This document shows, piece by piece, positions 29,972 to 62,827 of a stretch of DNA of 64,000 nt. The notes beneath the pieces were generated by a model, which was not told the origin of the DNA, made no database searches, and saw nothing but the letters and a program-made list of their open reading frames with translations. The position numbers and the translations under genes are program-made. The DNA lies in the NCBI GenBank assembly GCA_009783855.1, contig WRCO01000002.1, positions 25,038 through 89,037 on the forward strand. Direction: 5' to 3'. The stretch comes from Alphaproteobacteria bacterium. GTDB taxonomy: Bacteria; Pseudomonadota; Alphaproteobacteria; Rs-D84. The stretch's first letter is position 1. The number at the start of each line of letters is the position of its first letter.

Positions 29972-30066
29972 AGAGCATAGGGCACAGATAAGTGTTGAAA
30001 TTAAAAAGATATTTTACGGATATTAAAAAAGCATCTATGCTCTATGCTCTATGCTCTATGCTCTTG
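29972..30066 (+). promoter_or_regulatory. conserved 5' cassette E1 plus (CTATGCT)x4 heptamer tract preceding the bamB-like gene
   Basis: cacagataagtgttgaaattaaaaagatattttacggatattaaaaaagcatct followed by atgctctatgctctatgctctatgctc. Near-identical copies are at 38930-39003 and 53440-53530; a diverged copy is at 40925-41040. Confidence 0.7.
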
Positions 30067-31934: not shown

Positions 31935-32708
31935 CTAACAACTTTTAGCTGTCAGTTGTGTTAACTCTTTCCCGGTCAATTCTCTGAACTTTCCAGATTC
32001 CAGATTCCCAAGTTCTATCGGGCCGTAAGATTCCCGATTCAGCTTGGATACAGGGAGTCCAATATAATCAAACGCGATGCGGATTTCGTTTTTCTTGCCC
32101 TCGGTCAATTTGATTTTTACAAGCAATGGATAACGCGACAGCAATTCAATCTCCATGGGTGCGTATTTCACGCCGTCTATTGTCGCGCCGCGGCGAAGCG
32201 AATCAAACACGGAATCGTCCGCCGAAAGGGGCGATAAGAATTCACGAAGACGGCGGACGCCGTTCGGAGATTTTGCCGCCCCCGGGTCGGGTCGAAGCTT
32301 TGCGGTGTATACGCGGACGATTTTGGATTCCGGCAATGTCAGGCGCCTTGCAATATCGCCGTCGTTGGTAAGCAGCAGCAGTCCCGTCGTTTTGTAATCC
32401 AGCCGCCCGACATATTTCAAACCGCGCATATTTTTTGGCAGACAGTCGTAAATTGTTTTACGTCCGTCGGGGTCGCGCAGCGTCGTCATTGTGTTTGCCG
32501 GCTTGTTGAATGCGATTATTTGTGTTCGGGTTCGTGTGCGGACGGGTTCGTTATTTATGGCGACGACGTCATTCGGTTCGACAAAAAAGACGGGTGTTGT
32601 AACCGGTTTGCCGTTTACGGAAACGGAACCGTTTTCGATAAGACGCTCGGCCTCGCGCCGCGATGCGCCGCCAGAGTCAGAAATAAATTTAGCAAGTCTT
32701 GTTTTCAT
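31935..32708 (-). CDS. pseudouridine synthase RsuA/RluB family (S4 domain + PSU catalytic domain)
   Basis: S4 motif RLAKFISDSGGASRREAERLIENGSVSVNG. Catalytic GRLDYKTTGLLLLTNDG. The C-terminal tail encodes a family D repeat (NLESGKFRELT). Confidence 0.8.
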   Translation of the reverse strand: MKTRLAKFISDSGGASRREAERLIENGSVSVNGKPVTTPVFFVEPNDVVAINNEPVRTRTRTQIIAFNKPANTMTTLRDPDGRKTIYDCLPKNMRGLKYVGRLDYKTTGLLLLTNDGDIARRLTLPESKIVRVYTAKLRPDPGAAKSPNGVRRLREFLSPLSADDSVFDSLRRGATIDGVKYAPMEIELLSRYPLLVKIKLTEGKKNEIRIAFDYIGLPVSKLNRESYGPIELGNLESGKFRELTGKELTQLTAKSC

Positions 32709-35035: not shown

Positions 35036-35722
35036 ATGAAAAATATACCAAGGATTTATATAAATGAAAATTTGGAAGTTGGGCGAAGTTTCCCGGTGTC
35101 CAGGGACATCGCGCATTATTTGACCCGTGTTATGCGAACGGACAGATGTTTGGTGTTCAATTATGGAAAAGAGTTCAAGGCTGAGCTTTCAGTTGTCAGC
35201 TGTTCGTTGTTAGTTGTCAGTCCTACTGGGCGGCCCGACCCGTCGAACAATTTGACGCTTGCGTTCGCGCCGGTAAAACAGGCGCGGATGGAGGAAATGC
35301 TTTCCATGGCGACCCAGATGGGCGTAAAAAGGCTTCAGCCCGTAATCACTGCCTTTGTAAATGAACATCATCCGAAATGGGAAAGGATTAAAAAAATTGT
35401 CATAGAGGCGGCGGAGCAATCCGGAAGAAACAGCGTGCCGGAATTGGCAGAGCCGCAAAAATTTACAGAATTTCTGCAGGGGGTAAAAGACTTGGTTTTT
35501 GCGGACGAACGGGCCGCGAGCCCCCGGTCCTTTCCAGATTCCGGGCTTGCGTTGCACGCGCCCCGGAATGACACAATCGTTTTGATAGGGTCAGAGGGCG
35601 GATTTTCAGACGCGGAATTTGATGCGCTGGACAAAGCGGGCGCGACTGGCATAAACCTTGGGCCGACAATTCTTCGGGCGGAGGTCGCTGCGGTGGTGGC
35701 GATTGCGAAAGTTGTTGGTTAA
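35036..35722 (+). CDS. rsmE: 16S rRNA (uracil1498-N3)-methyltransferase RsmE, with an in-frame family B repeat insertion
   Basis: N-terminus MKNIPRIYINENLEVG. SPOUT C-terminal IVLIGSEGGFSDAEFDALDKAGATGINLGPTILRAE. Residues ELSVVSCSLLVVSPTG are encoded by repeat 35188-35222. Confidence 0.8.
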   Translation: MKNIPRIYINENLEVGRSFPVSRDIAHYLTRVMRTDRCLVFNYGKEFKAELSVVSCSLLVVSPTGRPDPSNNLTLAFAPVKQARMEEMLSMATQMGVKRLQPVITAFVNEHHPKWERIKKIVIEAAEQSGRNSVPELAEPQKFTEFLQGVKDLVFADERAASPRSFPDSGLALHAPRNDTIVLIGSEGGFSDAEFDALDKAGATGINLGPTILRAEVAAVVAIAKVVG

Positions 35723-38929: not shown

Positions 38930-39003
38930 AGCAAAGACAATAGAGCGCAGATAAATGTTGAGATTAAAAAGATATTTTACGGATATTAAAAAAGCATCTA
39001 TGC
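38930..39003 (+). promoter_or_regulatory. conserved 5' cassette E2 (no heptamer expansion)
   Basis: cgcagataaatgttgagattaaaaagatattttacggatattaaaaaagcatctatgct. Confidence 0.7.
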
Positions 39004-40307
39004 TTTTGCCTGTGCGAACGCGTTCTCGCAGCGAGCGCGGCGCGACGCTTGTCGAACTTCTTCTTGCGCTGGCGGTGGCGGCGGCCATGCTTCCATTTAT
39101 AATAAGACAGGCCGACGTGCGGACCCGCCGCGCGGAAAATATAAAAGCCGCCGCCGACCTTGGCAAAGTCAAATCCGCGCTTGAAAGATATATGGAAGCG
39201 AACAGGCACGAGCTTTTCTCGACCATAAGCCGGAACGTCGTGCGCGTATCGATTTCCGATTTGGAAGAACACGGGCTTGATACCGCCAATCTTGACAAGT
39301 CGGAACAGTTCCAGATGCGCGTCGTTAAAAGCGCGGACCGGGGCGGGCGGTCGTTTCTTCAGGGCGTCGTCATCATGGACACGGAAGGCATCGCGCCGAT
39401 AAGGACGCGCGAAATCGCGGCAATCGCCGGCGGCGGCGCGGGATTCGCCGACGATAACATAACATACGGCGCATTCGGAACATGGCGCGTAAGCGCGAAC
39501 GTATGGAACGCGCGGTTTACCGACAGGTCGCTTCTTGAAGTCACGGATGCCATACGGTCGGGCGAAGAATTCCTGCGCCGCATAGTGTACGAAGACGGCG
39601 GCGCGATGATGCATTCGCCGCTTGCCCTTGGCGGGCACGACATAGTCAACGCGCGGTCGGTGTTCGCGGAATCCGCGCGCTTTGCCGAATTCGTGAATTT
39701 TACGAACGCATCGGCAAGCCGCCTTGTCATGGAAGGCAAACCGACACTTGACGGCAATGTGACCATATCCGGAGAATCAACGGTTTCGGGCGTGCTGAGT
39801 TCCGATTCACGAAGCATGGAAGTCGGCCGCATGACGGTATCCGGCACTTCGCGGTTCGGCACGGTTAATGCAAACGAATTATGGGCGGGCGATTTGGAGC
39901 TTGCCGGATTTTCGGTCCAAATTGACGAGCGTCGCCCCGCCACGCTGTCGGTCGGCCGGTCGATTGACATGACCGGCGGACGCGTTGTCTCCATGCTTGT
40001 CGCGGTGGGACACGGGGGAAGCACTACGCCGCGGCTTTTCGTAAAAGACCGGGTTGAAGACGCAAGAAATCCCGAATATTTTTGGGATGTCGCGACGGGT
40101 GAAGCCATGCTTTCCGACATATTTATCCCCGCGCTTTCCAATATGGCGCGGACCGCCATAGGCCGCGAACAGCCGGGAACGGAATCTCATCGCATCCTGT
40201 CCCAGGTTGCGAACAACGCCAACGCGACGGTCGCGGATTATATGCGCGCGCTTGCCGAAATAGAACGCCGCGTCACGGCAAGGTTTGATGCGTTGAATTT
40301 GGAATAA
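38955..40307 (+). CDS. TadE/G-like pseudopilin-family protein 3 (SERG|ATLVELLLALAVAAAMLPF)
   Basis: Class III signal with Glu at +5. Beta-helix-like repeats (GNVTISGESTVSGVLSS...MTVSGTSRFGTV). The probable true start is the ATG at 39000 (MLLPVRTRSRSERG leader). Confidence 0.45.
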   Translation: MLRLKRYFTDIKKASMLLPVRTRSRSERGATLVELLLALAVAAAMLPFIIRQADVRTRRAENIKAAADLGKVKSALERYMEANRHELFSTISRNVVRVSISDLEEHGLDTANLDKSEQFQMRVVKSADRGGRSFLQGVVIMDTEGIAPIRTREIAAIAGGGAGFADDNITYGAFGTWRVSANVWNARFTDRSLLEVTDAIRSGEEFLRRIVYEDGGAMMHSPLALGGHDIVNARSVFAESARFAEFVNFTNASASRLVMEGKPTLDGNVTISGESTVSGVLSSDSRSMEVGRMTVSGTSRFGTVNANELWAGDLELAGFSVQIDERRPATLSVGRSIDMTGGRVVSMLVAVGHGGSTTPRLFVKDRVEDARNPEYFWDVATGEAMLSDIFIPALSNMARTAIGREQPGTESHRILSQVANNANATVADYMRALAEIERRVTARFDALNLE

Positions 40308-40924: not shown

Positions 40925-41040
40925 CACATAGAACACAGATAATAGAACATAGATAGGAGAACGAACAAATGTTGAGATTCAAAAACAATTTTACAGGTCT
41001 TTGGAAAGCATCTGTGCTCTATGTTCTGTGCTCGATGCTC
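40925..41040 (+). promoter_or_regulatory. diverged conserved 5' cassette E3 with degenerate heptamer tract
   Basis: acagataatagaacatagataggagaacgaacaaatgttgagattcaaaaacaattttacaggtctttggaaagcatctgtgctctatgttctgtgctcgatgctc. Confidence 0.55.
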
Positions 41041-41493
41041 TTGGTCTCGGCGCGAGCCGCGCCGACATGTCCGCCGTGCGTATGCCCGTCCATACCGCCG
41101 TCGATTTTTTCGACAAGCACGGATTGGGAAGCGGTGACGGGGATGCGCCTTTCCGAATTTATGGTTTCGTTCGGTCGCGATGGAAGCATCGGCAATATCG
41201 GGTGGGAGATATATTTCCTTGACGGATTTCCATGCTATGGCCAATCGGAGACCGCGCGCATGTGGGTAAGTCCGTCGCGCCATTACGCAATCGACGGCGG
41301 CGCCGACGCGCGCGGCCGCATCACGTGCCTTTATGCGCCGAAAACCGTAAAGCTTGCATGGCGCGAGGCAAGGCGCGACGCGGCGCAGGCGCGCACACGC
41401 GGGATGGCCGTTTGCGAAGTGGAGCACAGCGGACGGAACATCACAATCCGATTGGACAAATGCGAAAGGACGGATTGGGGTGATTTGCGATAA
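40969..41493 (+). CDS. hypothetical secreted Cys-rich protein (174 aa)
   Basis: Signal peptide after the cassette leader. APTCPPCVCPSIPP motif. 8 Cys. Confidence 0.4.
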   Translation: MLRFKNNFTGLWKASVLYVLCSMLLVSARAAPTCPPCVCPSIPPSIFSTSTDWEAVTGMRLSEFMVSFGRDGSIGNIGWEIYFLDGFPCYGQSETARMWVSPSRHYAIDGGADARGRITCLYAPKTVKLAWREARRDAAQARTRGMAVCEVEHSGRNITIRLDKCERTDWGDLR

Positions 41494-45541: not shown

Positions 45542-45570
45542 CCCCGTCATCCCGGCGAAGGCCGGGACCC
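45542..45570. repeat. family D inverted repeat, left arm (ccccgtcatcccggcgaaggccgggaccc), flanking the GIY-YIG gene
   Basis: Reverse-complementary to 45968-45993. Related copies at 60341-60368. Confidence 0.7.
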
Positions 45571-45577
45571 ACTGCCT

Positions 45578-45946
45578 TCAGGCTGTCTGTATATTTATCT
45601 CATCCGGCTTATATTCCGGCACAGGTTCAGCATAGGCATGTATGCCCGCGCCGCGAATTTCATCCCAAAGGTCTATCCAATACGGATTCTTGCTTATTAT
45701 CAAACGCAATTTCCAATTGCGTTTCCATTCTTTTAACTGTCTTTCCCGCCGAACCATTAATTCCATATCTTCAAAAAATTCATAATATACGATTTTATCA
45801 ACACCGTATTTCGTGGTAAACCCGCCGTAGAATTTTTCCTTGTGCTGTGCGACGCGGGCAATCAAATCGGAACTTGACCCGATGTACAGCGTTCCCATTT
45901 TATCGCTTGCTATAATATATACAAATCCGGCTTTCTTATTCAGCAT
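45578..45946 (-). CDS. GIY-YIG nuclease superfamily protein (small stand-alone type)
   Basis: FVYIIASDKMGTLYIGSSSDLIARVAQHKEK...YGVDKIVYYEFFEDMELMVRRERQLKEW gives the GIY...YIG motif plus conserved R and E. Confidence 0.7.
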   Translation of the reverse strand: MLNKKAGFVYIIASDKMGTLYIGSSSDLIARVAQHKEKFYGGFTTKYGVDKIVYYEFFEDMELMVRRERQLKEWKRNWKLRLIISKNPYWIDLWDEIRGAGIHAYAEPVPEYKPDEINIQTA

Positions 45947-45967
45947 CAGAGAATGTCGTTCCGCAAT

Positions 45968-45993
45968 GGTTCCCGGCCTTCGCCGGGATGACG
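45968..45993. repeat. family D inverted repeat, right arm (ggttcccggccttcgccgggatgacg)
   Basis: Pairs with 45542-45570 across the GIY-YIG gene. Confidence 0.7.
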
Positions 45994-46034: not shown

Positions 46035-46706
46035 TTACAACTTCACAATTCCATTCGTTGCGAACAGCTGTCCGTTTTCTTCGTATATTTTTCCGCCGGA
46101 TTCAAGCACCATCAATTCTCCGGCGCAAAGCTCCGCGTAATTCAAAGGGTCGCTTATAAACGCGTCAAACTTTCCCGTTGCAACAAACGCCAAATCAAGC
46201 GCCGCACAGCCGGTCGCACGCTTCGCGCCGGTATTCGGTATCCGGTATTCGGTATTCGAATAACCGATGGTAAGGTCCGCCGGATCGGACAGTTTCGACA
46301 CGCGGTGGCGGTTGGAATGGAACGCACTGAAAATAAAACATCCCGCGTCTTTTTCCGCGTAATACAATTTATCCGCAATCGGCGCGTATGTAAGGCCTGC
46401 GCGCGCCTCGCCGTTCACGCGAAGCGCAAGCGTTATCGCAAAATGTGAATTGCCGCGCACGAAATTCTCGGCGCCCGAAAACGCCAAAACAAATTCGGAA
46501 ATCCCGTCGCCGTCCGTCGACATGTTCGGAGTCAATACGCCCGCAGTCGGCCGCACAAGCGTCAAATCCGACAGAATCATTTGTTCGATTCTTTGTTCGG
46601 CCCTGCGCACAAAATCGCGCGCGCCGGGCAATGATTGCTGAAGCTGTTCCACCTCTCCGAAATCGCGGCGGATACCCGTCGCCGTCCGCGACAATGCCGC
46701 AAACAT
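46035..46706 (-). pseudogene. inositol monophosphatase (SuhB) family, degenerate and N-terminally truncated
   Basis: C-terminal AALDLAFVATGKFDAFI motif is present. The catalytic DPxDGT is replaced by FSGAENF. A family D 52-bp repeat lies upstream (46756-46808). Confidence 0.4.
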
Positions 46707-46807
46707 CTGATTTAATTCCGAAGAGCCTTTTAAGAGGTTTTCTGTTCTTTCCAATTCCGGGTCCTTTCCAGATTCCGGACAATTGCTTCGCAATTTCCGG
46801 AATGACA

Positions 46808-47017
46808 CTAAAACTTGAAGCCGTCGAATTTCTTTTTGAACTTGTCCGCCTGCTGGCCTTTGTCCACGGACTGTTTCTGGCCGGTCCATGCGGTGTGGTT
46901 AAGGTTGTCGACGGACAAAACCTGGTCCTTTTTAACGCTTGAATACATTTTCACGGTCTTGCCGTCGGTCATCGTCACGTTGATTTCGTGATACGCCGGA
47001 TGAATGTTTTTTTTCAT
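46808..47017 (-). CDS. rpmE: 50S ribosomal protein L31 (type B, non-zinc)
   Basis: MKKNIHPAYHEINVTMTDGKTV... Confidence 0.8.
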   Translation of the reverse strand: MKKNIHPAYHEINVTMTDGKTVKMYSSVKKDQVLSVDNLNHTAWTGQKQSVDKGQQADKFKKKFDGFKF

Positions 47018-53439: not shown

Positions 53440-53530
53440 CATGGATGGAGCACAGATAAGTGTCGAGATTAAAAAGATATTTTACGGATATTAAAAAAGC
53501 ATCTATGCTCTGTGCTCTGTGCTCTGTGCT
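53440..53530 (+). promoter_or_regulatory. conserved 5' cassette E4 plus (CTGTGCT)x4 heptamer tract
   Basis: cacagataagtgtcgagattaaaaagatattttacggatattaaaaaagcatctatgctctgtgctctgtgctctgtgctc. Confidence 0.7.
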
Positions 53531-54932
53531 CTTTTGCGGCTTTGCCGCAGATGCCGCGCCGGTAAGCAATATTCCGGGCGCCATTGCCGAATACGGCCAT
53601 TGGAATACAGATGAAACCCTTCGCCCCATGGTCGACGGAATCCGCAGTGATATAGCCGCGTTCGAAGCCGGGTTCGCAGAACAAGTATTTACCCAAGGTG
53701 ACCAGTTCGTGCCGCCCGAGGCGAAAATCGGACTTGCCATGATTAACGCGTTCACGATGGTCGCGCAATCAATCGACCGGACGCTTGGAAGTTTTGTCAT
53801 CGCGCTTCTTGTCGTTCTGTTCGCGTTCTGGGTGATGATGGAAACGTACCAGGTTATGAAGACCGGCGGCAATATAAGAGAACTTGCAATGAAAATCGTG
53901 CGCAAGGGTTTGTGGATTGCCGTATGGATTATCATACTGGCGTTCGGGCCCGCGCGATTATTCATGATGGTCGCAAGCCCGGTTATACAGGCGGGTATAA
54001 TCATGTCCGACCTTATACTTGATACCATGACCGAAGTCGCGGGCCTGCATCTTCTTGACACATGCGGCGCGATAAGGGGGTATGTCGCGGAAAGGCATAC
54101 GGGCGCCGGGCTTTTCAATGCGGAAGCCACGGCAGATATGCTTTGCATCCCGACAAGGCTTTCCGGATTCTTTTACACGTGCGTCGCGGCGGGATGGAAA
54201 TGGGTGGCGGCGGGCGCCGGAAATGTCTGGGCGGCGGGAACAACCGCGGTGGCGGGCGGGGTCGGCGGCGCCCTTCTTGGCGGCGGAGTGGCCGGGACGC
54301 TTGCCGGAGCCGGCGTCGGCGCCCTGACCGGCGGCGCGATAAGCGGCGGCAACATGCTTACATTCATCATGGGCCTTATATTTATCGCCATATTCGCGCG
54401 CAATATCTGGCTTTTCGCAATCGAAGCGCTTGGTGTTGTGGCAAGTCTTTTCCTTGCCGTCATGTTCTTGCCGTTCACCGCCGTCGCGGAATGTTTCGGG
54501 GGCGGCGAGACAAGCCTTAAAGACCGGGGGATATTCACGGAATTCTTCAAAATGCTTGCCAATATGGTCGGCGGCGGAAAATTGAAATTCCGCGGCCAGC
54601 TTCAGACATTCATAAACGCCGCGATTTATTTTGTGGCCTTGTCCGTTGTGTCTGCCATCGGGCTTGCCCTTCTTGCACAGGTCATCGGACCAAGTCCCGC
54701 GGATTTTGCGGACTCCGTCCCGACGGCGGAAAACAGCACAAGTTTCATGATGGTGCTTGTCGTCGGAATGCTTGTGTCGCATCTTGCCAAAAAGGCGGGC
54801 GATATTGCAAAAGACCTTGGCGGGTCCATAGATGCCGAATTTGGGAAACGGCTTGACGCACAGGCGCAATCTTTACGCGGCTGGGCGGTAGGCAGCGCAA
54901 AGAAATGGTACGGGGTGTTTAAGGGGAAATGA
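53460..54932 (+). CDS. polytopic membrane protein, paralog P5 (cassette-type leader; Gly-rich GxxxG segment)
   Basis: 490 aa. Signal MLCALCSVLFCGFAADA. AGTTAVAGGVGGALLGGGVAGTLAGAGVGALTGG. C-terminus AKKWYGVFKGK. Confidence 0.4.
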   Translation: MSRLKRYFTDIKKASMLCALCSVLFCGFAADAAPVSNIPGAIAEYGHWNTDETLRPMVDGIRSDIAAFEAGFAEQVFTQGDQFVPPEAKIGLAMINAFTMVAQSIDRTLGSFVIALLVVLFAFWVMMETYQVMKTGGNIRELAMKIVRKGLWIAVWIIILAFGPARLFMMVASPVIQAGIIMSDLILDTMTEVAGLHLLDTCGAIRGYVAERHTGAGLFNAEATADMLCIPTRLSGFFYTCVAAGWKWVAAGAGNVWAAGTTAVAGGVGGALLGGGVAGTLAGAGVGALTGGAISGGNMLTFIMGLIFIAIFARNIWLFAIEALGVVASLFLAVMFLPFTAVAECFGGGETSLKDRGIFTEFFKMLANMVGGGKLKFRGQLQTFINAAIYFVALSVVSAIGLALLAQVIGPSPADFADSVPTAENSTSFMMVLVVGMLVSHLAKKAGDIAKDLGGSIDAEFGKRLDAQAQSLRGWAVGSAKKWYGVFKGK

Positions 54933-57446: not shown

Positions 57447-58526
57447 ATGAAAATATGGATAGCCACAGGCGGAACGGGCGGGCATGTGTTCCCGGCGCTT
57501 GCCGTTGCGGCGGAACTTGTAAAGCGAGGCGACCGGGTCATAATATCCGCCGACGGGCGCGTTCAAGAAATGATTCGCAAAAACAAACCGGCGGGCGCGG
57601 GCACCGCGTTCGTATGGGCGTCCGGCGTCGGCGCAAAATCGTCCGTCCGGCAATTAATCGCGTTGTTCAAAATCGGATGTTCGGCGTCGGCGCTTGCCCT
57701 TCGCTTTATGGTTTTGCGCCCGGACAAGGTTGTCGCGTTCGGCGGATACGCGTCCGTTCCCGCAATACTTGCCGCGCGCGCGTTTCGCATTCCGACATAC
57801 CTTCACGAACAGAACGCGCATATCGGCCGCGCGAATCTGTTTGCGTTGCGCTGGGTCGACGTGCTTATGACATCGTTTCCGAAAGTGTCCGGTATTCGGC
57901 ATTCGGATACGGTATCCGGCAAACTACGCGTTGTTTATACCGGTCTTCCGGTTCGGAAAGATTTTATAGATGCCGCGTCCGAATACCGAATACCGAATGC
58001 CGAATACCGGCTGTTGATAACCGGAGGAAGTTTGGGCTCGCAGATTCTGGACGATGTTGTGCCGAACGCTGTGGCGGCGCTGTCCGCGTCCGTCAAGAAA
58101 AAGCTTTTCGTCGTTCATCAAACGCGGCCGGATGCCGTTGCCCGTCTGCAAAGGTTTTACGCCCACAACGGAATCCGCGCGAACGTTCTGTCGTTCATAC
58201 ACGACATGGCGGCGCAGATGGCGGCGGCCGACCTTGTCATTTCGCGCGCGGGCGCAAGCACCGTCGTCGAATTGCAAACCGTGGGCCGGGCGGCGATTCT
58301 GGTGCCTCTTGCCATCAATCCGGACCAGCCGGCGAATGCGGACGCATTCGCGAAAACCGGCGCCGGATTCAATGTGGCGCAAAGCAAATTTACGGTCAAA
58401 TGGCTGTCGGCAACGCTTGCCGAATTGTTTTCCAATCCCGCGCGGCTTCTGAAAATGAGCTCAAGGGCCCGACAGGAAAACAACGCCGTTGAAAATATAA
58501 TAAAGACGCTGGGCATTGATAGTTAA
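57447..58526 (+). CDS. murG: UDP-N-acetylglucosamine--N-acetylmuramyl-(pentapeptide) pyrophosphoryl-undecaprenol GlcNAc transferase
   Basis: RBS ggagg. MKIWIATGGTGGHVFPALAVA. GT28 C-terminal ITGGSLGSQ. Confidence 0.9.
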   Translation: MKIWIATGGTGGHVFPALAVAAELVKRGDRVIISADGRVQEMIRKNKPAGAGTAFVWASGVGAKSSVRQLIALFKIGCSASALALRFMVLRPDKVVAFGGYASVPAILAARAFRIPTYLHEQNAHIGRANLFALRWVDVLMTSFPKVSGIRHSDTVSGKLRVVYTGLPVRKDFIDAASEYRIPNAEYRLLITGGSLGSQILDDVVPNAVAALSASVKKKLFVVHQTRPDAVARLQRFYAHNGIRANVLSFIHDMAAQMAAADLVISRAGASTVVELQTVGRAAILVPLAINPDQPANADAFAKTGAGFNVAQSKFTVKWLSATLAELFSNPARLLKMSSRARQENNAVENIIKTLGIDS

Positions 58527-60244: not shown

Positions 60245-60340
60245 TCGGATTTCCTTTGTTATGATTATAAAGTGAAAAGTGATAGGTGAAAAGTGAAAAA
60301 TGGCTGTGTCGCGCTTTGCGCGGCGATTCTATAAACAATG

Positions 60341-60368
60341 GATCCCCGTCTTCGCGGGGATGACGGTA
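60341..60368. repeat. family D repeat (ggatccccgtcttcgcggggatgacggtaaacgc) upstream of the def start
   Basis: Would encode IPVFAGMTVNA if translated. Confidence 0.6.
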
Positions 60369-60902: not shown

Positions 60903-61756
60903 AGCGTAAGGCGATTATTTTGATGGGCACGAATGATTGGGTGATTCCGGTGTTCGAACGCGCGGCGAATGAACATGATATTGTCGCCGTATTTACCCGC
61001 GGGCCGAAACCCGCGGGCCGTAAAAGAATCGTCACAAAATCGCCGGTACACGTTTGGGCGGAATCACGCGGAATTCCGGTTTATAACAGGGTTAAAGAAT
61101 TTTCAAGTCTCAAACCTCAAATTTCAAATCTCGATTATATTGTCGTTGCGTCGTATGGCGTTATCTTAAAAGACGATGTTTTGAATTTCGCGCCGTGCGT
61201 AAATATTCACCCAAGCGATTTGCCGAAATATCGCGGACCGGCGCCTATGTCGACGGCCGTGTACAACGGAGATACGGAATCGGCGGTTTGTTTGATGCGG
61301 GTCGCGGCGGAAGTCGACGCGGGCGGCGTATATATGCGCGCGCCCTTTGCGATTGGTGAAAATGATACAACAGCGGACGTTGAATCGCGCGTTGGCGCAA
61401 TATCGGCGGAGATGTTAAGCGGATTTTTGGCATCGCCTTCAAACTATCCGTCCGCGGCGCAAGTTGGCACGCCTACGTTTACCCGCAAATGGACACCCGA
61501 TGACGAGATTATAAATTGGAACCGTGGTGCCGAGGCGATTCATAATCAGGTAAGAAGCATCGGCGGACGGACAAAGATAAACGGGTTGGATGTGAAGATT
61601 CTTGAAACGCGGGTTAATAATGACGAATTCCCCTTTGCCAAGGCTTCGGGGGGCAGGCTGGAAATCCTGCGCGTACAGCCGGCCGGAAAAAATCCGATGG
61701 ATTGGAAATCATTCGTTAACGGTTTTCGCGGGGCGCGAATAGAATTTGGGAAATGA
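60899..61756 (+). CDS. fmt: methionyl-tRNA formyltransferase
   Basis: VAVFTRGPKPAGRKR. NIHPSDLPKYRGPAPMSTAVYNGDTESAVCLMRV. Confidence 0.85.
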   Translation: MKRKAIILMGTNDWVIPVFERAANEHDIVAVFTRGPKPAGRKRIVTKSPVHVWAESRGIPVYNRVKEFSSLKPQISNLDYIVVASYGVILKDDVLNFAPCVNIHPSDLPKYRGPAPMSTAVYNGDTESAVCLMRVAAEVDAGGVYMRAPFAIGENDTTADVESRVGAISAEMLSGFLASPSNYPSAAQVGTPTFTRKWTPDDEIINWNRGAEAIHNQVRSIGGRTKINGLDVKILETRVNNDEFPFAKASGGRLEILRVQPAGKNPMDWKSFVNGFRGARIEFGK

Positions 61757-61781
61757 GAAAGCAGGCATAAGGAAAAGGAAA

Positions 61782-62027
61782 ATGAGAAACACGGAAAACA
61801 AACAGTTCAATCTGGACAATACTTATCACATAGCGAAAGTTTGCTGGAATTGTGCGCATTCTTACGAATTTGATTGGAGCAGAAACAGGAAATTCTTTGT
61901 CTGCGTGCATCCGGAAAGAAAAACCCCGGATGCAGAAAAAATAAGATTAATTATCGGAAACAGGCCGCCGTCCGATTTTGATTTTGTCATCCATCATTTT
62001 GGCTGTTGTGAAAAACATACAAGATGA
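61782..62027 (+). CDS. small Cys-rich hypothetical protein (81 aa; CWNC...C...CC pattern)
   Basis: RBS aaggaaaaggaaaATG. VCWNCAHS...FFVCVH...HHFGCCEKH suggests a zinc-ribbon-like fold. Confidence 0.35.
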   Translation: MRNTENKQFNLDNTYHIAKVCWNCAHSYEFDWSRNRKFFVCVHPERKTPDAEKIRLIIGNRPPSDFDFVIHHFGCCEKHTR

Positions 62028-62827
62028 CGCGATACAAACTGATTCTTGAATATGACGGAACGGATACCGTCGGATGGCAGACACAGGCGGACGGCGTGTC
62101 TGTCCAGTCGTTGTTGCAAGACGCAATTTTTCAATTCTGCAAAGAGCGCGTCGAAGTGGTCGCGGCGGGCCGCACCGATGCGGGTGTGCACGCGCTTGCG
62201 ATGACGGCGCATTTTGATTTGGAAAAAGAGGCCGAACCGGAAACGGTTATGGCGGCGGTGAATTTCCACCTGAATAGCGCGCCACCCTTCGCCGAGGCTT
62301 CGGGTGGCAGGCCGGTTTCGGTGTTGGCATGCAAGCGTGTCGACGAAAATTTTCACGCGCGGTTTGGGTGCAGAATGCGGCGCTATAAATACGTCATCCT
62401 TAATCGGCGGGCGCCCGTGGTTCTTGATAAAAACCGGGTATGGTGGGTGCCGCGACCTTTGGATATTGACGCGATGCGGGCGGCGGCGGTGCGATTGGTG
62501 GGCGAACATGATTGGACATCGTTCCGCGCAGCGGAGTGTCAGGGGAAATCCCCAATTAAAACGTTGGATGAGATAAAAATAATTTCCGGGGCTTTCCAGA
62601 GCCCGGACAATTGCGCTTTGCGCGATTTCCGGGATGACACAATAATTTTTGAATTTTCCGCGCGGTCGTTTTTACATCACCAGGTTCGGAATATGGTCGG
62701 AACCCTTGTCGAAATCGGACTTGGCAAACCGTACGACATAGATGAAATCTTCACGGCGAAAAACCGCGCCGCCGCCGGTCCGACCGCGCCGGCATCGGGC
62801 CTTTATTTTGTCGGTGCGGAATATTAA
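62024..62827 (+). CDS. truA: tRNA pseudouridine(38-40) synthase TruA, with a probable in-frame family D repeat insertion
   Basis: MTRYKLILEYDGTDTVGWQTQ, RTDAGVHA and FLHHQVRNMVG. Residues GAFQSPDNCALRDFRDD are encoded by 62590-62641. Confidence 0.9.
   Translation: MTRYKLILEYDGTDTVGWQTQADGVSVQSLLQDAIFQFCKERVEVVAAGRTDAGVHALAMTAHFDLEKEAEPETVMAAVNFHLNSAPPFAEASGGRPVSVLACKRVDENFHARFGCRMRRYKYVILNRRAPVVLDKNRVWWVPRPLDIDAMRAAAVRLVGEHDWTSFRAAECQGKSPIKTLDEIKIISGAFQSPDNCALRDFRDDTIIFEFSARSFLHHQVRNMVGTLVEIGLGKPYDIDEIFTAKNRAAAGPTAPASGLYFVGAEY
62590..62641. repeat. family D long (52-bp) element inside truA
   Basis: gctttccagagcccggacaattgcgctttgcgcgatttccgggatgacac is about 85% identical to 46756-46808 (tcctttccagattccggacaattgcttcgcaatttccggaatgacac). 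Confidence 0.65.

Follow-up and report, generated by a model that had tools for sequence, protein, structure and literature searches.

An in-frame insertion in truA of an uncultured alphaproteobacterium is probably a solo copy of a long-stem DNA hairpin repeat of the NTS/SRM class

The truA gene of an uncultured alphaproteobacterium (G+C content of about 50%) contains an in-frame segment that is probably a solo copy of a DNA hairpin repeat, a long-stem member of the class formed by the Neisseria NTS and the Ssn-related motifs (SRMs), with an Ssn nuclease as its proposed partner. We studied this segment in a 64-kb stretch of contig WRCO01000002.1, referred to below as the window, and use the term D-type for the long-stem hairpin repeat found in truA, in rsmE, and between rpmE and suhB. 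An earlier note on this DNA had placed a 52-bp palindromic element at 62590–62641, inside the truA open reading frame (ORF), and we agree that this segment is in frame, where it encodes GAFQSPDNCALRDFRDD(T). The genes and repeat copies on which the argument turns are as follows.

62024–62827, + strand: truA, host of copy A; 267 aa; Pfam PseudoU_synth_1, E 2.8e-33.
62581–62641, + strand: copy A, in frame in truA, encoding ISGAFQSPDNCALRDFRDDT; recognized with a covariance model and as an insertion relative to orthologues.
46750–46808, + strand: copy B, intergenic, in the rpmE–suhB spacer; 75.7 bits.
35036–35722, + strand: rsmE, host of copy C; RsmE family TIGR00046, E 1e-31.
35519–35575, + strand: copy C, in frame in rsmE, encoding SPRSFPDSGLALHAPRNDT; GC-rich "b-type" upper stem; 67.3 bits.

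The truA segment at 62590–62641 reads GGCTTTCCAGAGCCCGGACAATTGCGCTTTGCGCGATTTCCGGGATGACACA. The 52-bp extent applies to this segment, and the true unit is slightly longer, at about 59 nt, running from a CC(C/G)GG-NCC block upstream of TTTCCAGA to TGACAC. On the + strand, the anatomy of the unit is CC(C/G)GG-NCC-TTTCCAGA-(TYCCGG, variable stem-loop, CCGGRA)-TGACAC, with a length of about 55–60 nt for a solo and about 150 bp for a pair. The opposite strand reads TGTCATTCC-hairpin-GGAATCTGG, and the consensus of this GTCAT strand is TGTCAT-YCCGG-(stem of 9–16 bp, loop of 3–4 nt)-CCGGRA-TCTGGAAAGG. Copy A reads TGTCATCCCGG...CCGGGCTCTGGAAAGCC on its - strand, and copies B and C read TGTCATTCCGG-(stem-loop)-CCGGAATCTGG on their reverse strands. 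The upper stems vary between copies with the pairing kept. The hairpin proper of copy A (62602–62633) has 14 base pairs in its stem, which is interrupted by one bulge and capped by a loop of 3 nt; its predicted energy is -13 kcal/mol as DNA, with a z of -6.1. The stems of copies A, B, and C contain 14, 12, and 11 base pairs, respectively. They follow two architectures that are found repeatedly in the family: copies A and B are AT-rich and have one bulged base, and copy C is GC-rich and has a 2x1 internal loop.

In the window, the covariance model detected three full copies and no more, each of them in + orientation. Their scores (75.7 bits for B, 67.3 for C, and 63.5 for A, the last with E 4e-13) are partly given by construction, as the model was trained on 32 family members that included all three. 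The next-best matches, none above 15 bits, were the reverse strands of the same three hairpins, and the rest of the window remained below 11 bits. Copy C was revealed by a repeat scan and a looser pattern. A 22-mer pattern common to the truA segment and the segment at 46756–46808 had 2 matches, compared with 0.00 expected from 100 shuffles. The identity of 85% that the earlier note gave for these two segments is a fair figure: the 43 identical bases make up 91% of the 47 ungapped columns and 74% when end and internal gaps are counted. At gathering thresholds, Rfam returned two tRNAs only across the whole window and no family for the hairpin.

Comparison with orthologues showed that copy A is an insertion. 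Most of the 120 best TruA homologues listed have 243–252 aa, and typical orthologues 243–249 aa, compared with 267 aa in the window. The segment lies before the conserved FxHHxVRN helix, as had been proposed, and alignment with E. coli TruA (1DJ0, 2NQP) identified it as an insertion in a turn, with a net gain of 16 residues in the turn of the beta-hairpin just before FxHHxVRN. An AlphaFold model placed residues 189–205 in a low-confidence loop between strands 179–188 and 206–213; this model, which was built from a shallow alignment of 16 sequences and had a mean pLDDT (predicted local distance difference test) of 67, was used only for placing the insert between two strands. In the following, P-numbers denote TruA orthologues and L-numbers loci of relatives. 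Ten of the 15 aligned orthologues have nothing at the turn. TruA is free of the element in E. coli, in T. thermophilus, and in P0004, a 72% identical orthologue from the termite-gut metagenome-assembled genome (MAG) GCA_009782315.1, in which the empty site reads AAAACA directly followed by GCCGGCGATGAAATT. By the earlier note's own criterion, the same segment in TruA orthologues from unrelated taxa would have refuted its reading, and this was not seen; the element occupies this site only in two close relatives, P0003 (L001) and P0002 (L002/L003), which are 77–78% identical and carry it with a GC-rich stem (...CTTTCCAGATTCCAGGCTCTGCTGCGCAGCCCCGGAATGACACAAT...). In P0002 (L002 8140–8973), a second, unrelated hairpin, TCCGTCACCGCAAGCGGTGCCGAGACTT, is nested in the 5' block of the element, still in frame (PFHPSPQAVPRLWIPG). 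P0005 and P0061 hold unrelated insertions at the same turn, which is therefore a permissive site. Set against the empty site of L004, the truA junctions gave no sign of a target-site duplication. The conserved boxes contain a stop codon in only one of six reading frames (AA-TGA-C), so in-frame survival is easy, and the intragenic copies observed have lengths divisible by three and lie in variable loops or linkers.

Two other features of the truA region were recorded. A second palindromic family is present in frame, as GCCACCCTTCGCCGAGGCTTCGGGTGGC in truA (62276–62308, encoding PPFAEASGG) and as the related TTCCCCTTTGCCAAGGCTTCGGGGGGC in fmt (about 61628–61660, encoding FPFAKASGG). The truA copy of GCCACCCTTCGCCGAGGCTTCGGGTGGC is identical at 27–28 of 28 positions in L001 and L002, although identity at synonymous sites is only about 60%. 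L004 lacks it, and related copies occur in L015, L022, L030, and L070. Between fmt and truA lies a Cys-rich ORF of 88–93 aa with no Pfam match on record (window 61746–62027; L001 3354–3620). It is absent from L002 and L004, where fmt abuts truA.

Copy C is located in the variable region before the LIGPEGGFS motif of RsmE. Relative to copy A, its 5' half is read in another frame (SFPDSG vs AFQSPD) and its 3' end in the same one (RNDT vs RDDT). In L080, the rsmE orthologue has a copy with an AT-rich stem at this position (ATTCCGGATAATTTTGCGCAGGCGCAAAATTTCCGGAATGATACA, 33.8 bits). Other orthologues hold different insertions in this loop: CTTACGC-type heptamer repeats followed by AACGACACA in L081 (10001–10711), and two other, unrelated palindromes in L083 (7030–7749). 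The rsmE loop looks like a general sink for insertions. An xNDx remnant at the site is present in several close orthologues and absent from more distant ones, a distribution that fits an old insertion that has decayed in some lines.

The copy near suhB is a homologous repeat, as claimed, but it is not in a coding region. According to public gene calls on an identical contig, copy B is intergenic in the 101-nt rpmE–suhB spacer, directly after the rpmE stop codon (46808–46810, - strand), and its other end falls about 45 nt short of where the suhB-like gene is called to begin; the rpmE product (L31) was matched to a public gene call with an ATG start. Copy B was also considered as a terminator and rejected, as it has no terminator-like site or tail.

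The C-terminal tail of rluB (31966–32010), listed previously as a related copy, is not one. Its only match to the element is CTTTCCAGATTCCAGA (15 of 16 bases); it lacks both the hairpin and the ATGACA end, and the family covariance model scored it at 8.5 bits (E = 2.2). The segment encodes ...YGPIELGNLESGKFRELTGKE..., which aligns without gaps to YGDIPLPKGLPRGGWTEL of E. coli RluB and matches the equal-length C-termini of 19 orthologues (YGPxELGxLxxGxxRELxxxE). The rluB tail is the native, conserved GxLxxGxxREL C-terminus. Decay of a former copy (22 of 28 bases match copy B) was rejected on the protein alignments and the model score. The broader proposal of tolerated, in-frame palindromic loop insertions in housekeeping enzymes stands for truA, and extends to rsmE, which was unlisted there, but fails for rluB and for the suhB-proximal copy.

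The repeat has multiplied in this uncultured alphaproteobacterial lineage, as solo hairpins and inverted pairs, both between and inside genes. Close relatives of the lineage come mostly from termite-gut metagenomes. In relatives, the unit is mostly an inverted pair with outward-facing TGTCAT...ATGACA ends and a spacer of 50–60 nt, and in-frame copies are frequent. UvrD carries in-frame copies or pairs in L030 and L013, the latter from a different metagenome source. In DNA polymerase I (PolA) of L070, a whole pair occupies the linker that connects the 5'-3' exonuclease domain with the 3'-5' exonuclease domain, and further in-frame copies occur in a radical-SAM enzyme (L015) and in YidC (L024). 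The stop-free ORFs that span the copies in these five loci have Pfam domains on either side.

A metagenome scan with the pattern TTTCCAGANNCCRG-N(10-36)-CCGGRATGACA yielded 73 loci, a few of which are chance matches within coding sequence. About half are from the JGI sets Ga0123353, Ga0123355, and Ga0099364. The first set is also the source of one truA relative, and contigs of the other two belong to the MAGs Emb289P1bin35 and Th196P3bin127, which we take to be termite-gut bins. Further loci were judged to be from soil by their JGI contig names only, and these presumed-soil loci carry a 61-nt double-hairpin form. A scan of genome contigs that required CCGGRC after the 5' box gave 0 matches, the pattern being too narrow, and a looser pattern gave 18 loci. 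The genome scan found the same motif in three species of Bradyrhizobium, in Tardiphaga, Stellaceae, and Dongiaceae, and in the two termite-gut MAGs, mostly as pairs reading GTCATTCCGGGG...AACCCGGAATC(YRG). The 5' block of paired copies (TTCGACTCCCC...TTTCCA) was also considered as an att-like remnant of a tRNA 3' end; this was rejected, with no T-stem/acceptor register and no tRNA found by ARAGORN at the copies.

Base pairing is maintained across the family. The 43 distinct copies from the window and relatives have a median stem of 12 bp and a median z of -5.6. In alignment A4 (32 copies), 94% of cells are paired compared with 72% in shuffles, and 105 cells show double changes compared with 36 in shuffles; either value was reached by 0 of 500 shuffles. 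The covariation signal vanished when the pairing partners were slid. At column pair 27/63, 10 of the 32 copies have switched from T-A to C-G. Because the stems covary freely while the boxes are unchanged, constraint appears to act on DNA shape and on the flanking boxes.

The boxes and the hairpin resemble those of a characterized system. The NTS of Neisseria, CGTCATTCCCGCGMAVGCGGGAATCYRG, includes the dRS3 palindrome and has been generalized to the SRMs, inverted repeats of 20–50 nt that flank small single-domain GIY-YIG genes (ssnA); the encoded nuclease binds SRMs and cuts just upstream, on single-stranded DNA only and on one strand only (Chenal et al. 2025, Nat Commun 16:2388, PMC11893778). 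Given this range, D-type copies are not barred from the SRMs by length alone. The reverse strand of the D-type element shares the frame of the NTS, CGTCATTCCCGCG...GCGGGAATCYRG, and 17 outer-box positions are the same. All three window copies have TGTCAT on the - strand where the class has its 5' box (HGTCWY) before the stem, and a hairpin follows directly, with stems of 11–14 bp. At the 3' box (RNCYNB; GGAATCYRG in NTS), copies B and C have GGAATCTGG. Further points of likeness are a stem starting with TCC or CCC, the presence of many copies per genome, often in inverted pairs, a small, single-domain GIY-YIG gene in the same genome flanked by the motif, and enrichment in host-associated Alphaproteobacteria.

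The window contains such a gene and three canonical short motifs.

45578–45946, - strand: single-domain GIY-YIG nuclease gene, candidate Ssn-type; 122 aa, as in the public gene calls; PF01541, E 2e-14.
45545–45572, + strand: short Ssn-related motif CGTCATCCCGGCGAAGGCCGGGACCCAC, flanking the GIY-YIG gene; match to the published pattern, inverted repeat.
45966–45993, - strand: short Ssn-related motif on the other flank of the GIY-YIG gene, in inverted orientation.
60338–60365, - strand: third short motif, CGTCATCCCCGCGAAGACGGGGATCCAT, in the rmuC–def spacer, upstream of def.

The published SRM pattern, HGTCWYN(0-2)YYVSBRHN(0-5)WNVSBRGN(0-2)RNCYNB, has 3 matches in the window compared with 0.2 expected. 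The SRM-GIY-YIG-SRM cassette at 45545–45993 is a candidate ssn locus; it comes next downstream of the suhB-like gene, and its GIY-YIG gene is about 800 nt from copy B. MAG Th196P3bin127 (L073/L093) carries a GIY-YIG homologue with 37% identity, and an inverted D-type pair follows the end of that gene at a distance of 22 nt. An NCBIfam search with the window protein gave only a sub-threshold match to a group-I-intron endonuclease. Spurious ORFs across the cassette hairpins yield peptides of the "PGLRRDD" type. A contig from ENA ERZ27257304 (L103), from the same sample as L002, encodes an identical L31 product and an identical GIY-YIG protein; the organism of the window and the L002 relative (TruA 78% identical) appear to co-occur in one sample.

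D-type elements also differ from NTS. They have an extra conserved 5' block, CC(C/G)GGNCC-TTTCCAGA, on the strand opposite the GTCAT box, and they lie in frame in essential genes; for NTS, an intragenic position is reported to be rare (2% in N. meningitidis 8013; PMC11893778).

Several points weigh against placing the D-type element in this class with an Ssn partner. All three D-type copies fail the published SRM pattern, their stems being about twice as long; D-type stems have 12–16 bp with a bulge or internal loop, compared with about 6–7 bp in NTS. Copy A also deviates in its 3' box, where it has GGGCTCTGG and not GGAATCTGG. The GIY-YIG gene of the window is flanked by motifs of the short type, so this nuclease may not partner the long type, and its protein sequence found no significant match in the PDB (best match 1ZG2, E 0.067). 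The search pattern fixed TTTCCAGA and CCGGRATGACA, so these columns are invariant in alignment A4 by construction; the stems, column pair 27/63, and the 5' block were left free. The genome was sampled through the 64-kb window only. Finally, Ssn nucleases are not known to spread their motifs by any mechanism, and the NTS work offers mobility only as a hypothesis (PMC11893778).

By analogy with NTS/SsnA pairs, it is the GTCAT strand that would fold into the hairpin when single-stranded. The hairpin would then be bound, with a cut just upstream, by a small Ssn nuclease of the GIY-YIG type, for which the product of 45578–45946 is a candidate. Recognition by the nuclease would keep the boxes conserved and may also spread the element. 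The peptide that the element encodes presumably has no function.

With respect to coding sequence, the element behaves like the Rickettsia palindromic elements (RPEs), and its entry into genes is a known kind of event, not a new system. RPEs, which Ogata and colleagues reportedly described in 2000, are said to lie in frame in housekeeping protein genes, at surface-exposed sites and with function kept. They are about 100–150 bp long and specific to Rickettsia. The likeness is one of described behavior, with repeated palindromes in frame at tolerated sites (truA and rsmE; UvrD, PolA, YidC, and the radical-SAM enzyme in relatives), and extends to a host-associated alphaproteobacterial host. In contrast to RPEs, D-type elements are about 55–60 bp as solos and about 150 bp as pairs and have NTS-type boxes.

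Another reading is that the repeat is comparable to a repetitive extragenic palindrome (REP), a bacterial interspersed mosaic element (BIME), or a miniature inverted-repeat transposable element (MITE), moved by a Y1 transposase of the REP-associated tyrosine transposase (RAYT) or IS200-IS605 type, by a DDE transposase, or by recombination, with the NTS likeness incidental and Ssn uninvolved. We consider this unlikely. REPs are short imperfect palindromes, extragenic by definition, that alternate in orientation, have an orientation-giving GTAG box adjoining the stem, and are served by a Y1 (HUH) enzyme. For REPs and BIMEs with RAYT, Nunvar and colleagues reportedly proposed in 2010 that single-stranded hairpins are handled by the enzyme whose gene they flank. 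The D-type element is likewise an imperfect palindrome with an orienting box, alternating orientation, and a motif-flanked enzyme gene; the inverted pairs of relatives, about 100 nt apart and with hairpin-bearing ends TGTCAT...ATGACA, resemble BIMEs or MITEs, and their spacer holds GGGAGTAGAA, which includes the REP-type tetranucleotide GTAG. The failure of the D-type copies to match the strict SRM pattern also favors this reading, and the parallel with REP/RAYT is stressed in the NTS study itself (PMC11893778). However, the box of the D-type element is GTCAT and its associated gene encodes a GIY-YIG protein; the window copies are solos, with no GTAG or CTAC next to the stems of copies A–C, and GTAG was found only in the inter-hairpin spacer of the relatives' pairs. 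No transposase was noticed beside any copy in about 690 kb of retrieved loci, in which no systematic search was made, and GIY-YIG is the only enzyme gene found adjoining D-type or short motifs. The identity of 17 outer-box positions with NTS also speaks against this reading.

It is very unlikely that the hairpin is selected at the RNA level, as an mRNA-stabilizing, processing, or translation-pausing structure. The covariation would fit an RNA helix equally well, copy B lies between two co-oriented genes, and the solo intragenic copies in truA, rsmE, and the radical-SAM gene are all in sense orientation. Nevertheless, pairs put the unit in both orientations within one gene (L070 and L030), the YidC copy is antisense, and the conserved, asymmetric boxes outside the helix point to strand-specific recognition by a protein. 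The hairpin also has neither an Rfam family nor a terminator-like tail, and the characterized SsnA does not bind RNA (PMC11893778).

That the TruA loop is instead a lineage-specific functional extension, such as a contact for tRNA or a partner, selected at the protein level with the DNA similarity secondary, is scarcely credible. In its favor, the insertion persists in three lineages despite a truA nucleotide identity of only about 78%, and the same turn holds unrelated insertions in P0005 and P0061. Against it, the boxes are conserved as DNA, yet the peptide is wholly different between orthologues (SPDNCALRDFRDDT vs IPGSAAQPRNDT). This DNA also occurs outside genes, at 46750–46808, and is read in another frame in rsmE, and the model shows a disordered loop.

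Under the preferred reading, a DNA hairpin repeat of the NTS/SRM class, the odd 16-residue loop of an essential tRNA-modifying enzyme would be the footprint of a selfish or domesticated DNA hairpin and not an enzyme innovation. Annotators should be warned that such loops, and the junk ORFs that arise from hairpins, are probably not protein biology. Ssn-related hairpins would then be able to colonize coding sequence in frame, as in TruA, RsmE, UvrD, PolA, and YidC of this lineage, which would join two separately treated literatures, those on Rickettsia-type in-frame palindromes and on NTS/Ssn single-strand nuclease sites. D-type copies may also serve as natural long-stem substrates for studying Ssn specificity.

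The persistence of the boxes in truA is itself a puzzle. Between the window and L001/L002, the third base is the same in about 60–63% of identical-residue codons, and overall nucleotide identity is about 78%. CTTTCCAGA and CCGGRATGACACAAT are nonetheless identical at 23 of 24 positions between the window and L001, while the upper stems of the window and L001/L002 are unrelated in sequence and differ in architecture. If 78% identity is assumed, a rough binomial estimate puts P for this box identity at about 0.02; with 60% assumed, P falls much further. The result is suggestive of constraint on the boxes, of conversion, or of re-insertion. At the orthologous sites of both truA and rsmE, the boxes persist while the stem architecture switches, being AT-rich in the window truA and the L080 rsmE and GC-rich in the L001/L002 truA and the window rsmE. 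In addition, the 3' junctions natively resemble the end of the element (GATGAA in L004 truA; AACGACACA in L081 rsmE), which could reflect a target preference or remains of the element.

It is conceivable, but distinctly unlikely, that essential genes of this lineage do more than tolerate NTS-type hairpins and that the hairpins are actively kept up or renewed in them. If they were, the cause might be an Ssn-dependent single-strand mechanism that re-inserts the hairpins at specific sites or converts them or, alternatively, selection for Ssn recognition sites in housekeeping genes, for example to restrict replacement by incoming DNA. In that case, in-frame palindromes of the Rickettsia type would be tied to the Ssn system as well.

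Other repeats in the window were noted as well. The suhB-like protein (46035–46706) has LAFSGAENF where the metal-binding motif of the inositol-monophosphatase family, which we take to be DPxDGT, would be expected. Its gene contains an in-frame run of CGAATAC-type heptamers (NTEYRIPNTG; 46227–46258), and an inverted copy of this run is present at 57980–58011. A four-copy, 89-nt repeat (29977–30065, 38940–39028, 40954–41042, and 53445–53533) ends in CTATGCT/CTGTGCT heptamer runs, and further heptamer-run families (ACGAATC/ACCAGCA... and AACTGAC...) are dispersed in the window.

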